Part shown: in pieces, positions 18,097 to 63,851 of the stretch
How the letters are laid out: every line of letters begins with the position of its first letter
Numbering within the stretch: the stretch's first letter is position 1
Origin: Candidatus Doudnabacteria bacterium
GTDB taxonomy: Bacteria; Patescibacteriota; Doudnabacteria; UBA920
Direction of reading: 5' to 3'
NCBI GenBank assembly: GCA_038230955.1
Contig: JBBRMG010000001.1
Location: forward strand, 18,312 to 82,311
Length of the DNA: 64,000 nucleotides
Translations under genes and position numbers: made by a program
Notes under the pieces: model-generated
The model's database searches: none
What the model was told of the DNA's origin: nothing
The model's input: only the letters and a program-made list of their open reading frames with translations

Positions 18097-18309
18097 ACTA
18101 AACTTTACTTTTTATTTAGGGGAATTTGATAGGCGTTTGTGTACCATAAATTTGCGTGGGCCAGTCGTCTAACTAGTTAGGACAGGTCCTTGTCAAAGAT
18201 CAAACCCGGGTGCAAGACCCGGCTGGTCCACCATTGACTTGACATGGTAGCAAGTCGTGCTAGAATAATAGTACTTTGACAAGGATCATGGGTATAGAAA
18301 CTTGCACCC

Positions 18310-29236: not shown

Positions 29237-29339
29237 ACTTTAAGTTTAAATCTGTACAATGAGGGATAAATGAAAAGATTTTAGGTAAATTTTATCTTTT
29301 CTTTAAGGAAATTTTATCTATCCTTCTGTATAATGTATA

Positions 29340-29580
29340 CATGGCGGAGAGTTGTCTGGAGTGACAAGGACTGACAAAACCGTTATACTGTTTTTACCAT
29401 TCAGCCTAAACTCATGGTTTCAAACCCGTGGGCATGGCACAAAAACCTTTCAGAACATGCGGCTCTCCGTCCAGAGCTCTGAAAGGTCATGGCTCGAAAG
29501 GGTCATGGGTAGGTTTCCTACTTCTGGCGGGGGGCTTTATGTTTGCCCGCCCAAAGTACGAACCTCCATAGGGAGGTTTT
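29340..29580 (+). promoter_or_regulatory. candidate structured 5' leader or ncRNA of about 240 nt, ending in an RBS-sequestering hairpin before the small ORF 29581-29769
   Basis: A TATAAT-like -10 box lies at about 29326. Several stable hairpins are present (cctttcagaa...ctctgaaagg; ggcggg...cccgcc; cctccatagggagg). The last hairpin pairs the AGGGAGG Shine-Dalgarno sequence. Confidence 0.4.
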
Positions 29581-29769
29581 ATGTTTTCAGATTACGCAAA
29601 GGATCGAATTATTGAACTGGTCGCGGTCATAGAACTATCGCTTATCCTGGTAGGGGTTATGTTCTATTATCTTTTCCTTCTCCCTCAACAGCAGGAAAAA
29701 TGTCAGCGAGGCAATTCACGTGGGACCAGTGGAATCTCGCAGGAAGCAAAAATAAAAACCCAAAAATAA
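29581..29769 (+). CDS. small single-pass membrane protein (62 aa)
   Basis: AGGGAGG RBS 5 nt upstream, a TM helix, and a terminator-like palindrome downstream. Confidence 0.5.
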   Translation: MFSDYAKDRIIELVAVIELSLILVGVMFYYLFLLPQQQEKCQRGNSRGTSGISQEAKIKTQK

Positions 29770-29779
29770 ATGTACAAAA

Positions 29780-29806
29780 AACTCTCGGGATTCCCGGGAG
29801 TTTTTC
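29780..29806. terminator. bidirectional terminator-like palindrome flanked by A and T runs
   Basis: actctcgggattcccgggagt palindrome with A6 upstream and T5 downstream. Confidence 0.55.
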
Positions 29807-29810
29807 TATT

Positions 29811-30446
29811 TTAAAAGCTTCGCGATTCACCGTACGGCAACGCCGCAAACTCCACGTTGAACTTCTTACACCACATCTCGGACATATAGTAATATGGCCC
29901 GCCGTCAGTTAAAAATCCATCATGAATCGGCAGGCACACTTGTGGTTTAACAGCTGCAATATAATCCAATGTCTCAGATATCTTCTCCCATGGTGCTACT
30001 ACTGGTAACGCCAAAATTTCCACTTGCTTCGGTGGTATTGTTAGACTATCGCCCGGATGGAATAATCGGTCAGCAATGAAATAACAGGTGTTCTGAGCCA
30101 GTGGAATATCGGGGTGAATCATTGCATGGTCATTGCCAAACGCTTCTACTGTAATCCCTCTGACTTCAATTTGAGCCCCCTGTTCCAACAACTGAAAAGG
30201 GATTCCATTGTCTAACAAAAGCTGGCCTACTTCGGTGTTCGTATAGACTAATGCTTTCGAATTGTGTTTTAAAAGATTCTGCAAGTTTTCCGGAACAATG
30301 TGATCCGGATGACTATGAGTAATTAGGACTGCGTCAATGTCAGCCAAACCTTCCGGTAGTTTAGAGTAACTCCCTGGGTCAAACAAAATCCTCGCTTCTC
30401 CCTCCTCCACCAAAATACATGAATGTCCGTATTTAGTAATGTTCAT
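29811..30446 (-). CDS. MBL-fold metallo-hydrolase
   Basis: HSHPDH motif. Confidence 0.8.
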   Translation of the reverse strand: MNITKYGHSCILVEEGEARILFDPGSYSKLPEGLADIDAVLITHSHPDHIVPENLQNLLKHNSKALVYTNTEVGQLLLDNGIPFQLLEQGAQIEVRGITVEAFGNDHAMIHPDIPLAQNTCYFIADRLFHPGDSLTIPPKQVEILALPVVAPWEKISETLDYIAAVKPQVCLPIHDGFLTDGGPYYYMSEMWCKKFNVEFAALPYGESRSF

Positions 30447-31326
30447 TCAACTCGTCTTGGTTAATTTTTTCATTTGCCTGAATCGCTTCCTGATTCAGTT
30501 TCCACGCATCTTCATGGTTGCCAGATTTTAATTGAACGCGCGCCTGATCTAATAACTTACGGGCTTGATCAATATCCCCACGTTTTTTTGACTTGTTATC
30601 TTTATCGTTTAAATGAAGCAATACTTGGGATGATAGAATCGCATTATCTGTAGCATTAATCTGGCTGTTTACAGTAGTCTCGTCATTTTGGTCAGAGTGG
30701 TGTTTATCTTTATCTTTGTCACTATCTTTACCATTAGTGGACAGGTTGAGTAAGTGTTTTTGTTGGGCGGATATAGTAGAGCGGAACTTTTCACGCAAAC
30801 TCGCGGCATCCTCTTTTCGATTATCCGCTTCCAGGCTATCTACTCTTGCTTGAATGTGAGTAGCATGTTTTTGAAAATTAGTTTGTACTTCCGCTTGGGC
30901 AATGGCATCTAGCTGATTGGCTCTAGCCAATTCCTGAGCCTCGTTTAAGCTCCGAGCTGCTAGCGTCATCTCAAATTCGGCTTTCTGGTTTTGATCATGA
31001 ATTAAAGCTAACTGCACAGGTTCATTGACGTTTACTTTCCAGCCGTACAATCGTTGACCCGGTAACGATTTTTCTGCCGCCAATGCAGTGCCCGCTCCCC
31101 CAACTATAACCAAAGCAATAGCAGCTAAGACGACCGGCATAGGGCGCAAAGCAAAAGTACTGAACGCATAACGCAAGCTACCCATGAAATTATCTTTGGC
31201 AGGTAGCGCTACGGTTGGGTGTTGCTCCATGTAGCTCACCAATTGGTCACGCACAAAAGCTTTTCGAGAATAACCGAATTGCACGGATGCTTTAGCTTTA
31301 TTAAGATGTTCTGGTAAATTGTTCAT
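30433..31326 (-). CDS. putative anti-sigma factor (membrane-anchored, coiled-coil/Asp-Lys-rich)
   Basis: Immediately downstream of the ECF sigma factor. One TM segment after a roughly 60-aa cytoplasmic N-terminus. Confidence 0.5.
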   Translation of the reverse strand: MNNLPEHLNKAKASVQFGYSRKAFVRDQLVSYMEQHPTVALPAKDNFMGSLRYAFSTFALRPMPVVLAAIALVIVGGAGTALAAEKSLPGQRLYGWKVNVNEPVQLALIHDQNQKAEFEMTLAARSLNEAQELARANQLDAIAQAEVQTNFQKHATHIQARVDSLEADNRKEDAASLREKFRSTISAQQKHLLNLSTNGKDSDKDKDKHHSDQNDETTVNSQINATDNAILSSQVLLHLNDKDNKSKKRGDIDQARKLLDQARVQLKSGNHEDAWKLNQEAIQANEKINQDELNEHY

Positions 31327-31331
31327 TGCAA

Positions 31332-31835
31332 TTAGTCTTTATTCAATTCTTTTAGCGCAACTACAGCGCGTGTCAATTTAACGGATACGTGGTTAGGAGT
31401 AATCTCTAAAATTATTGCGATCTCTCGCGGTTCCAAGTCATCTACAAAGCGGTAAATTAATAACTGCTTAATATCATCGTCTAGCTGGTCCATAGATTTC
31501 AGTATTTCCTCGGCCATAATCCGATTCTCTACTTCTGTGCCATCATCGCCCATTGGTTCAGCTTGGGGGTTGTTCTCTAAAATCTGCTCTAGGCTCTCTT
31601 CGGTTTTCTTGCGCGAGTTATCAATAACCAAATTGTTAGCCACTCGGTACAGGAATGCCCGAATGTTATCTATCTGTTTGCCCTGGCGTAAGTAGTCCCA
31701 AGTCTTAGTGTATGTCTCTTGGACTAGGTCCTCAGCCTTAGCAGCAGAATAAACGCGAAAAAAGCAGTGCCGATATATTGCCTCTGAATACTGGTCATAA
31801 GCGTCTAAAAATTGCTTTTCCGCTGATGCTTTCAT
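31332..31835 (-). CDS. RNA polymerase ECF-type sigma factor
   Basis: Sigma70 region 2 (DLVQETYTKTWDYLRQ) and region 4 HTH (EPREIAIILEITPNHVSVKLTRA). The ORF extends to 31895, overlapping the upstream gene. Confidence 0.8.
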   Translation of the reverse strand: MKASAEKQFLDAYDQYSEAIYRHCFFRVYSAAKAEDLVQETYTKTWDYLRQGKQIDNIRAFLYRVANNLVIDNSRKKTEESLEQILENNPQAEPMGDDGTEVENRIMAEEILKSMDQLDDDIKQLLIYRFVDDLEPREIAIILEITPNHVSVKLTRAVVALKELNKD

Positions 31836-31873
31836 AATATATGACGGATAATAGAGGGGAGGATTACAAAAGT

Positions 31874-33652
31874 CTAACGCAGTACTCCGCCCCACTCAAC
31901 TACCACAAAACCGCGTCTTTCAGGGGTATGAATGTTATATCCTTGCACTGCAATGGGATGTTGCAAGGGCTGGAAATCCATCAATACCCGAATAATAGTA
32001 TCAGGTCTTGGAGTTACGGCCATTGGTGCGATTTGATCCATCGTCCGATTACCCATAAACGTTACAAAGTAATACGGGGCGCCTTGCATTTTTGGGGTCC
32101 AAAATTCCTTAAAATCAGCTGTCTCTTTTTCATTCAACCCTAGCAATGCCAGTTTCTTATCGAAAAAACCAGCAATTTCTGACTTTGCCACGGCGAATCC
32201 CGTTTTAGGAGTTTCGTAAATACCGCCTCGGCCTTCCCAAAACAAATACGGGTATTGTCGGTTTGTCCCAACTTCGGTCAAATTACCACTAGGATCGGCA
32301 ATAACATTCCAGCCATTATTATATGTTGGTTCAGTGTAAGTAAATCCACCTTGCGGAGCCAACTGAACATTAACTTGTTCCTTTGTTTGTGGGTATAAGT
32401 AGATTACTGGTTTGCCGCACTCTGCTTGCGGAATAAACTGATTGCTTTGAAATTCAACTGTCCGACCAAATGGGTCAATCCAGAAAAAATAAGGACGAGC
32501 TTTCACAAAATCACTGTATGCTAATTTCTGTTGGCCATCCGGCACATAATAGTTGTTGTCATATAAATCTTTTAGTAACGGATTATTGGGATCTTTCAAG
32601 AGGTAGACGATATCACCTTGTGAAGTTTTACCGGAAGCTAATAAATCGGCCATGGATAATTTGGTTGCAGGAACCGTAGCGGTGAGATTAGAGGCACCAC
32701 AACCCCCTACTGTTTTGTAAGTGTACTCTTGCGTATTTTTGCCGCCGCTAGTCCAAGCAATTGCTGGCACATTATCGACTCCGACGAAATTAACACTAAT
32801 AGCATAGGTGAATATACTACCATCGACCCCTTTTATGTAGAATCCGTTGCGGACCATGTACGCGTCATCCAACTTGGTATTGGGCTCGGCCACATTGGTA
32901 TAGACTTGCCCGAGTTTGGGATCCATAAATGCTGGTATGACATTTGCATCCAAAATAAATGGGTCATACGACGGATAGGTCAATTGCAATAATAGTTTTT
33001 GATTGGGCTGGGGGCCACTGAACATCAAGGGAAATTCCAAGTCTGTCAATCGATAGTCCTTATCTATTGCAAACTTAGCGTTAGGCCAAATCGGTTGGTC
33101 AGGATTAGTGTAAGCCGGATCTGAATATTTTCCTAAGACGGTATAGACATTTCCCAACTTGGCTACTCGAGCCATGTTCGATGTATCACCAGGACAATCA
33201 CATCCTGGCATTATAACGAGAAAGTCGGCACCCTTGTATTTACCCCCGATGAAAGTACCTACTTTATAAGCAGTGCTGAATTTCTTATCAGCGGCAGTAG
33301 CATCTGGAGCATCAAAAATTTTCACTGCCCCAATCTTCGCTGGAGTTTGAGCTTTTACGTCTCCCGAAATCTTATAATCAGCGATAGTTGGCACTGTGGG
33401 CAAAGAAGGAGTTACAGGTTGAGGGGTATTTTCTGCTGGCGGTGCAGTCTGGTCAATTGATACTGGCTTAGTATTGGCATTCAAAGGAATAGTGGGATTG
33501 AGTGTCCCATTCTGTTTCTGAGCCCAGTAATATCCTCCGGCGGCGGCTGCAATAACGATGATTAGGGCAATAATGCCACCGGCAATCCATCGAGCCCGAT
33601 TAGACTGAGGCTCGGGCATTAAACGCTGCGGATTATTTTCATCATTTTCCAT
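31874..33652 (-). CDS. hypothetical large membrane-anchored extracytoplasmic protein
   Basis: 592 aa with an N-terminal TM and no recognised domain. Confidence 0.65.
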   Translation of the reverse strand: MENDENNPQRLMPEPQSNRARWIAGGIIALIIVIAAAAGGYYWAQKQNGTLNPTIPLNANTKPVSIDQTAPPAENTPQPVTPSLPTVPTIADYKISGDVKAQTPAKIGAVKIFDAPDATAADKKFSTAYKVGTFIGGKYKGADFLVIMPGCDCPGDTSNMARVAKLGNVYTVLGKYSDPAYTNPDQPIWPNAKFAIDKDYRLTDLEFPLMFSGPQPNQKLLLQLTYPSYDPFILDANVIPAFMDPKLGQVYTNVAEPNTKLDDAYMVRNGFYIKGVDGSIFTYAISVNFVGVDNVPAIAWTSGGKNTQEYTYKTVGGCGASNLTATVPATKLSMADLLASGKTSQGDIVYLLKDPNNPLLKDLYDNNYYVPDGQQKLAYSDFVKARPYFFWIDPFGRTVEFQSNQFIPQAECGKPVIYLYPQTKEQVNVQLAPQGGFTYTEPTYNNGWNVIADPSGNLTEVGTNRQYPYLFWEGRGGIYETPKTGFAVAKSEIAGFFDKKLALLGLNEKETADFKEFWTPKMQGAPYYFVTFMGNRTMDQIAPMAVTPRPDTIIRVLMDFQPLQHPIAVQGYNIHTPERRGFVVVEWGGVLR

Positions 33653-36564: not shown

Positions 36565-36638
36565 TGGTCGGGCTGCCGGGAATCGAACCCGGACTACATC
36601 CACCCCATGGACGCGTACTACCACTATACTACAGCCCG
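36565..36638 (-). tRNA. tRNA-Pro (anticodon GGG)
   Basis: 74-nt cloverleaf folded by hand: acceptor CGGGCTG/CAGCCCG, anticodon loop AUGGGGU, T-loop TTCGATT, CCA encoded. Confidence 0.85.
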
Positions 36639-37769: not shown

Positions 37770-37855
37770 TGGTGCCGGTGGTGGGAGTCGAACCCACATG
37801 CCCTTACGGACAATGGTTTTTGAAACCATCACGTATGCCATTCCGTCACACCGGC
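37770..37855 (-). tRNA. tRNA-Leu (anticodon CAA)
   Basis: 86 nt with a long variable arm, anticodon loop UUCAAAA, T-loop TTCGACT, CCA encoded. Confidence 0.85.
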
Positions 37856-61017: not shown

Positions 61018-61094
61018 GGCCCCGTAGCTCAGATGGATAGAGCGTCAGCTTGCGGAGCTGAAGGTCGCACGTTCGAATCGTGCCGGGGTCACCA
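61018..61094 (+). tRNA. tRNA-Arg (anticodon GCG)
   Basis: 77-nt cloverleaf: acceptor GGCCCCG/CGGGGTC, D-arm GCTCAGATGGATAGAGC, anticodon loop UUGCGGA, CCA encoded. Confidence 0.8.
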
Positions 61095-63776: not shown

Positions 63777-63851
63777 TGGTGCCCCCGCGAGGAATCGAAC
63801 CTCGAACAGCGGATTAGAAGCCCGCGGTTATATCCATTTAACTACAGGGGC
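63777..63851 (-). tRNA. tRNA-Arg (anticodon TCT)
   Basis: 75-nt cloverleaf: acceptor GCCCCTG/CGGGGGC, anticodon loop CUUCUAA, T-loop TTCGATT, CCA encoded. Confidence 0.85.

Follow-up and report, generated by a model that had tools for sequence, protein, structure and literature searches.

What is the long folded leader that stands in front of a gene for a 62-amino-acid (aa) membrane protein in a Doudnabacteria genome, and what does it do? The locus lies in a 64,000-nucleotide (nt) stretch of contig JBBRMG010000001.1, which we call the window and whose coordinates we use throughout. The initial annotation of this stretch described a structured leader with no known riboswitch consensus recognisable by eye, ending in a hairpin over the Shine-Dalgarno (SD) sequence, and proposed that it represents the OFF state of a riboswitch or RNA thermometer. 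When the whole window was scanned against Rfam with curated thresholds (cmscan), positions 29403-29522 of the plus strand matched a known family, LOOT (RF03000), with 73.3 bits against a cut-off of 46.4 (E = 7e-12). The match is full-length, running from model position 1 to 121 of 121 without truncation, and no other family was matched at the leader. By this match the leader belongs to LOOT, an RNA already catalogued in bacteria. We put at about 0.6 the probability that LOOT is the 5' leader of the membrane-protein mRNA and acts in cis as a two-state switch, a reading built on comparative sequence analysis and predicted folds. What stands of the earlier proposal is a structured 5' leader that likely controls the small membrane gene through alternative structures; the role given to the SD hairpin does not stand, as that hairpin is unconserved.

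LOOT comes from the set of 224 candidate structured RNAs of Weinberg et al. 2017 (PMC5737381), the main text of which does not discuss it, and it is recorded as a metagenome-based family of the type "sRNA", or small RNA (PMC7779021). Our literature search found it mentioned only in passing, in CaCoFold and Rfam papers, with no function proposed, and returned no paper connecting it with Patescibacteria. Rfam has listed LOOT since release 14, known from metagenomes only and assigned to no organism, role or mechanism. Our comparison places it mostly in Patescibacteria (the Candidate Phyla Radiation, CPR), a very large and poorly understood group whose gene regulation is almost unknown, and finds that it behaves like a 5' leader and not like a small RNA that stands alone. 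What appears to be new at the family level is this taxonomic placement, the leader behaviour, an alternative helix with a U-rich tract and a decoy strand, a 5' motif, and frequent serine recombinase neighbours; the element in the window itself belongs to the known family, and its only local peculiarities are the SD hairpin and an upstream tail-like segment. An orphan motif is thereby turned into a concrete two-state hypothesis that can be tested by mutation.

All six helices of the family form in the minimum free energy (MFE) fold of 29396-29598. P1 (29403-29411 with 29432-29439) contains the CCUAAAC/GCAUGG internal loop, and P1a is at 29411-29432. An A-rich junction (29440-29445) leads into P2, made up of an outer part (29446-29454 with 29478-29486) and an inner part, the apex (29462-29477), and P2 is followed by P3 with its GAAA loop (29488-29507) and by P4 (29508-29522). 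P2 inner is shorter here than in the Rfam model, with five model pairs non-canonical or deleted and GCUCU/AGAGC forming instead. The segments CCUAAAC, GCAUGG and AAAAACC and the P3 GAAA loop, which are invariant or at least 90% conserved among 63-67 representatives of the family, are all present. The window copy agrees with the family across all 121 positions, the six helices, the invariant segments and the GAAA loop, and no feature of the motif sets it apart. It scores 95.5 bits with an extended covariance model that we built, and this model and the Rfam scan both find a single LOOT copy in the window. The family has two GNRA-type tetraloops and an invariant receptor-like internal loop; we take the CCUAAAC/GCAUGG internal loop and the invariant P3 GAAA loop to resemble the GAAA tetraloop/11-nt receptor pair. 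The several stable hairpins first reported for this leader hold up well: none of 200 dinucleotide shuffles folds as stably as 29340-29600 (z = -3.99). The sequence ggtcatggctcgaaagggtcatgg, described as a direct repeat, is another matter: it is the two arms of one 8-bp hairpin, P3, and these look like a direct repeat because each contains the palindrome CATG.

Related loci were gathered with an exact pattern taken from the conserved LOOT core, which occurs at 67 places in contigs of a one-genome-per-species set and at 120 or more in metagenome contigs. Our covariance model confirmed 57 solid matches in the former and about 88 of the first 100 loci in the latter; it was substituted for a crude P3-hairpin filter that had missed true LOOTs (e.g. 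L012 and L025). De-duplication left about 125 unique loci and 67 representatives with less than ~80% similarity by a crude string-match ratio. With taxon labels used as deposited, 39 of about 55 genome-derived loci are in metagenome-assembled genomes (MAGs) named as Patescibacteria or CPR, among them Saccharibacteria, Levy-, Gottesman-, Uhr-, Doudna-, Roizman-, Nomura- and Moranbacteria, Paceibacterota and others, and none is in an isolate. Eight loci (L018, L023, L027, L030, L049, L050, L051 and L070) sit in MAGs that carry the label "uncultured Gammaproteobacteria". This label may be mistaken, since the 47 nt of LOOT available for L018 match exactly the beginning of the LOOT copy in a Microgenomates MAG (L067). 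LOOT was not found among IMG/VR viral contigs: a loose pattern gave 11 matches there, none of which was LOOT by Rfam, and we attribute them to chance.

The Rfam model ends at P4 (29522 in the window), and the alternative helix, the U-rich tract, the decoy strand and the 5' motif all lie outside it. In nearly all loci P4 is followed by a tail of roughly 20 nt (E2) whose sequence complements E1, the 5' strand of the P2 apex. E1 in the window is GAACAUGCGGCUCUCCGUCCAGA (29453-29475, plus strand), including the segment GCUCUCCGUC (29462-29471), and can pair either within P2 or with E2. The tail UCUGGCGGGGGGC and the U-rich tract UUUAUGUUU that follows it occupy 29523-29544 on the same strand, and form the 3' strand of a long-range helix with a terminator-like end. 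E2 contributes 29523-29535 to this helix and includes the segment GGCGGGGGGC (29527-29536). The window thus has an apex-complementary tail followed by a tract of the UUUNUGUUU type, and its column pairs fit the helix of the family.

Support for E1:E2 comes from three kinds of comparison. Across a MAFFT alignment its nine core pairs are 94.8% paired with double changes at 9/9; the known helix P3 is 98.5% paired there. Using a covariance-model alignment in which these columns were unconstrained, we found 17 pairs to be 88-94.5% paired, with many double changes; one position has GC 17 times, CG 14, UG 9, AU 8 and UA 2. The third test needs no alignment: the apex pairs with its own tail at -23.5 kcal/mol and with swapped tails at -14.7 kcal/mol (0 of 5000 permutations). 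The initial annotation had suggested testing homologous leaders for covariation, and the E1:E2 pairs do covary across the family, as does the P2 inner hairpin, which shares its GCUC strand with E1:E2; six helices other than E1:E2 show strong covariation in the covariance-model alignment. Including its extension, E1:E2 reaches 17-20 bp around a GC-rich core of 9-12 bp, and the extension overlaps the top of P2 outer. From the geometry of these helices we infer that the full 17-20 bp E1:E2 helix cannot coexist with an intact P2.

The U-rich tract UUUNUGUUU lies directly 3' of E1:E2 and is conserved in the family. It begins with UUU in 55 of 63 representatives and averages 6.5 U per 9 nt, against 24% U overall. 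A GC-rich helix core with a U tract immediately after it is what an intrinsic terminator has. Just past the tract comes a third strand, E3, typically CCGCCAG and in the window GCCCGCC (29545-29551, plus strand), whose pairing partner is the 5' half of the tail, with the U tract looped out between them. The GGCGGG...CCCGCC hairpin previously described at 29527-29551 is this pairing of tail and decoy (E2:E3), one part of a conserved putative switch. In the swap test across the family E2:E3 gives -9.84 kcal/mol with its own partner versus -8.37 kcal/mol with swapped ones (0 of 5000 permutations), and matching changes are seen in, for example, L072, L073, L096, L142 and L150.

Nearest-neighbour prediction favours different folds at different transcript lengths. 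For 29396-29545 the MFE structure contains E1:E2, at -59.3 kcal/mol versus -53.2 with P2 enforced. For 29396-29598 it is native LOOT together with E2:E3 and the SD hairpin, at -75.2 kcal/mol versus -68.4 with E1:E2 enforced. The family behaves in the same way, E1:E2 being the MFE fold in 38 of 67 representatives when the RNA ends at the U tract and native P2 in 55 of 67 when it extends 30 nt further. As a candidate expression platform, the leader has alternative pairings that covary and are predicted to be bistable.

The gene context is that of a leader, whereas Rfam types LOOT as "Gene; sRNA". In 109 of 116 loci the gene that follows has the same orientation as LOOT (it is opposite in 3 and missing in 4), while upstream genes show no same-strand bias (30 same strand, 58 opposite, 27 none). 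The median distance between the tail and the ATG is 34 nt. This is too short for a promoter of their own, so that, from these distances, most downstream genes must be transcribed through LOOT. A motif, ACAAYTNAAT in DNA and ACAAYUNAAU in RNA, stands 9-20 nt before P1 with at least 8/9 matches in 47 of 64 representatives, and in these it is preceded by -10-like and -35-like signals at fixed distances, which place the 5' end of LOOT RNA at the motif. No pairing partner was identified for the motif, which may be either the first transcribed stretch or a binding site. LOOT is in these respects a structured domain in a 5' untranslated region (UTR), with a same-strand gene close behind it and a promoter directly upstream, as riboswitches are.

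The window follows this layout. Its best sigma-70-type promoter, GTGACA (29361-29366), 17 nt, TATACT (29384-29389), has 10/12 matches on the plus strand, is at the position expected from the family and keeps both hexamers in L200, one of two orthologous loci described below. The leader starts with ACCAUUC (29396-29402), a degenerate counterpart of the 5' motif with 7/9 matches. Transcription is predicted to start near 29396, which gives a leader of about 185 nt, not the untranslated region of about 240 nt first described. The TATAAT box on which that longer estimate depended is present at 29329-29334 and conserved as TATACT in L200. It is unlikely to be the main promoter of LOOT: a good -35 element is lacking, and our promoter scan did not call the box.

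Another sign of cis control comes from the downstream start codons. In 8 of 116 loci (L014, L074, L080, L081, L085, L110, L126 and L177) an exact 8-13-nt copy of the P2 5' strand stands immediately before the ATG, with about 0.9 expected by chance, and the copies often include the preceding AAAACC; the window is not among these loci. Their sequences imply that the P2 3' strand can pair alternatively with the ribosome-binding region, a second, translational route onto the gene, and we read them as an independent sign of cis control. Eight LOOT segments were examined for pairing with the translation-initiation region. Only the P2 3' strand stood out (z = -3.5), owing to the minority of loci with such an exact copy, and SD occlusion was not found as a general feature of the family.

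The proteins downstream of LOOT are as short as 45 aa and as long as more than 1800 aa; they are highly varied, and most lack a Pfam match. The 37 different Pfam families that do appear are each found in at most 4 of 116 proteins, and they include DUF805, Ig-like, Ltp lipoprotein, DUF4352, zinc ribbons, Mrr-type nucleases, SNase and signal peptidase. The sole common trend is an N-terminal hydrophobic segment, present in 68% of downstream proteins and in 21% of crude control open reading frames (ORFs) from the same loci. A large serine recombinase catalytic motif is near LOOT in 34 of 124 unique loci, 31 of these having it upstream. These recombinases (Resolvase + Recombinase + Zn_ribbon_recom, 428-457 aa) are immediately upstream, in one or the other of two fixed layouts. 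One is tandem (L047, L112, L117, L151, L172, L183, L188, L198); here some 38 nt separate the stop codon from LOOT, and the -35-like TGGAAA is formed by the conserved C-terminal ...LEK* codons. The other is divergent (L028, L040, L055, L080, L102, L139, L149, L179), with the start codon about 125-165 nt upstream. Loci that share a layout differ in the cargo downstream of LOOT.

The two-state reading can be put as follows. Transcription would begin near 29396, and P1 to P4 would fold while being made. The emerging tail could then invade the P2 apex to form E1:E2, and with the U's behind it transcription would stop (OFF); termination at the U tract is what the predicted folds lead us to expect. 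If the native LOOT fold were instead held by a ligand, a protein or folding kinetics, polymerase would read through, E3 would capture the tail and lock the native fold, and the downstream mRNA would be made (ON). In the lineage of the window the local SD hairpin would mask the ribosome-binding site and probably damp translation, outside the conserved mechanism.

We offer more tentatively the wider proposal that LOOT is a Patescibacteria-specific riboswitch-like attenuator, responding to a ligand or protein factor, with the native fold ON and E1:E2 plus U tract OFF, for scattered and partly mobile genes of envelope, secreted and defence type, many of them beside serine recombinases on integrative elements. 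If this were true, this phylum of ultrasmall episymbionts would have its first assigned class of regulatory RNA, and a leader common to many surface and accessory genes would provide a handle on the control of the cell envelope and of mobile-element cargo.

Several points weigh against a two-state leader. E1:E2 encloses about 45-50 nt (the P2 3' strand, P3 and P4), which is unusual for an intrinsic terminator, and a terminator scan that allows loops of 3-8 nt makes no call there. The U tract could be helix rather than terminator, since part of it pairs with an A-rich strand. Only about half of the loci have a clear E3. The fold energies are nearest-neighbour values without pseudoknots or tertiary contacts, and a short E1:E2 pseudoknot could coexist with P2. 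The downstream genes are heterogeneous and suggest no ligand, where a riboswitch would be expected to precede genes of shared function. Collection by an exact pattern biases the locus sample, and ORFs and hydrophobicity were scored mechanically. Finally, there is the Rfam typing of LOOT as an sRNA.

Compared with terminating riboswitches and attenuators, LOOT is alike in having a structured domain in the 5' UTR, a strand shared with a helix that is followed by U's, and mutually exclusive folds close in predicted energy. It differs in that the shared strand is at the apex of an internal hairpin and not in a closing helix, the terminator-like helix encloses two further hairpins, the decoy past the U tract is a non-standard part, and the downstream genes, having no common function, point to no ligand. 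The c-di-GMP-I (GEMM) riboswitch uses a GNRA tetraloop/receptor contact, controls genes of many kinds, including numerous cell-envelope genes, and can be present in several copies per genome. LOOT would resemble it in genomic behaviour and in apparent GNRA tetraloop/receptor use; there is no sequence or structure similarity between the two. Type I toxin mRNAs of the hok or tisB type encode a small hydrophobic peptide behind a long folded 5' UTR, and the window locus is similar in having a small single-pass peptide behind a long leader that occludes the ribosome-binding site. However, we identified no antisense RNA or antisense promoter, and LOOT precedes proteins of many families and of all the sizes given above, so it is not toxin-specific.

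Among the other explanations, the one that survives best is that LOOT is a free-standing sRNA that ends at E1:E2 and the U tract as its own terminator, acts in trans or binds a protein, and lets the downstream gene be expressed by leaky read-through, the alternative pairings being folding intermediates. This agrees with the Rfam type, the helix and U tract would define a 3' end near 29545, GNRA-type tetraloops with an invariant receptor-like loop are what compact functional RNAs have, and tandem LOOT copies exist. We nevertheless consider it unlikely. There is no space for a second promoter, given the 94% same-strand bias and the short gap; E3 covaries, and only in RNA that has been read through does it change the predicted fold; and copies of the P2 strand stand at the start codon in eight loci. 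Strand bias, E3 and these copies would all be superfluous for an RNA acting in trans. The tandem copies are in L070 (4318-4465 and 4065-4203, minus strand), 115 nt apart, and in L071 (1612-1774 and 1988-2132), 214 nt apart with a 57-aa ORF between them.

The SD hairpin deserves a separate account, having been the centre of the initial annotation. It was correctly described: GAACCUCC-AUAG-GGAGGUUU (29560-29579, plus strand) forms 8 bp at -11.4 kcal/mol (z = -2.65 to -3.35 against shuffles) and pairs the SD sequence AGGGAGG (29570-29576), with the ATG at 29581, 5 nt downstream. The gene behind it (29581-29769, plus strand) encodes the 62-aa single-pass membrane protein with its hydrophobic segment. 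The protein has no Pfam match and two homologs, in L199 and L200, with 69% and 66% identity. The differences are concentrated at third codon positions (17/8/38 and 15/8/30 by codon position), so by this pattern the ORF is a real gene. As would be expected of a leader that belongs to this gene, both homologous loci carry LOOT ahead of the small ORF, and chromosomal synteny is stable between the window and its orthologs. LOOT is 95-100% identical among them over the part from P2 to the tail, versus 63-69% for the coding sequence, and P4 shows a compensatory U-A to C-G change. The spacer and SD hairpin are 42-74% identical. The hairpin has only 5 bp at about -5 kcal/mol in L199 (z = -0.4, no better than shuffles) and is absent from L200; on this comparison it is a local, lineage-specific addition outside the conserved mechanism.

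That the SD hairpin is itself the regulated element, whether as an RNA thermometer or as a translational riboswitch in its OFF state, with the upstream structure as sensor, is for these reasons quite improbable. Its significant stability (z ~ -3), its cover of AGGGAGG and the nearby ATG speak in its favour, and it is like the ROSE and fourU thermometers in pairing the SD just before the start codon. On the other side, the hairpin is unconserved in the orthologous leaders, its segment being 58-74% identical there while LOOT is almost unchanged, and its anti-SD arm has no significant complementarity with LOOT segments in the window. Known RNA thermometers typically have mismatched stems; this stem is perfect, GC-rich, stable and lineage-specific, and carries no thermometer family signature by Rfam. 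The evidence does not support an RNA thermometer.

Similar doubt applies to the suggestion that the E1:E2 duplex of some 20 bp is a processing or stability element, either an RNase III site that splits LOOT from the mRNA or a 5' stabiliser. Double-strand-specific RNases need a helix near 17-20 bp, which is the length that E1:E2 attains with its extension, and a partly paired U tract suits a helix better than a terminator. But the U's are at least 90% fixed while their partners vary between A and G, which goes beyond the needs of pairing, and E3 and the predicted flip suit a co-transcriptional decision better; we regard this explanation as hardly probable. It is extremely unlikely that LOOT is a DNA-level module of mobile elements, with the dyad CTGGCGG...CCGCCAG serving large serine recombinases as a recombination or attachment site rather than as an RNA hairpin: the upstream recombinases in two fixed layouts, the variable cargo and the ~30-bp dyad of E2-E3 at a boundary of conserved and variable DNA are all compatible with it, but G-U pairs are abundant in E1:E2 and present in E2:E3, which indicates selection on RNA, six other helices covary strongly, and the window and its orthologs have stable synteny, with no recombinase found by the motif scan of the 64-kb window.

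The two-state leader thus remains our preferred reading, and the rest of the locus can be described around it. Could the leader be coding? The two ORFs that overlap it, of 87 aa (29352-29615) and 47 aa (29428-29571), have no Pfam match and are broken by 19- and 15-nt indels in L200, and we reject the possibility that the leader is coding.

Upstream of LOOT, a tail-like segment that we call E0' (AUGGCGGAGAGUUGUC, 29341-29356, plus strand) is complementary to the P2 apex. The duplex of E0' and apex would have about 14 bp at -22.4 kcal/mol, and it forms in the MFE fold of 29340-29600. E0' is conserved in L200, and such differences as there are preserve the pairing. Its place is between the proximal promoter and the distal TATAAT box, and it would be transcribed only if the distal box were used. 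We considered E0' as a family-wide anti-terminator and rejected this, the swap test being marginal (-10.6 kcal/mol own versus -10.05 swapped, 76 of 5000 permutations) and the segment peculiar to the window and L200. If transcribed, it might act as an anti-terminator particular to this lineage; alternatively, it may be the remnant of another LOOT tail.

The unit is closed by the intrinsic terminator at 29777-29805, a 13-bp stem with a T run, which had been called bidirectional and does fold stably on both strands (-17.7 kcal/mol plus, -14.9 minus, z ~ -4). It is shared with a convergent gene for a hydrolase of the metallo-beta-lactamase (MBL) fold on the minus strand (29811-30446). Beyond the MBL-fold gene, 0.6 kb from the LOOT unit, are a gene for a 187-aa sigma factor of the extracytoplasmic function (ECF) type (Sigma70_r2 + r4) and then one for a 297-aa DUF5667 membrane protein (30433-31895, minus strand), which look like a sigma/anti-sigma pair. 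The Rfam scan of the window also gave five tRNA genes, at 18158-18230, 36568-36638 (minus), 37773-37855 (minus), 61018-61091 and 63780-63851 (minus).

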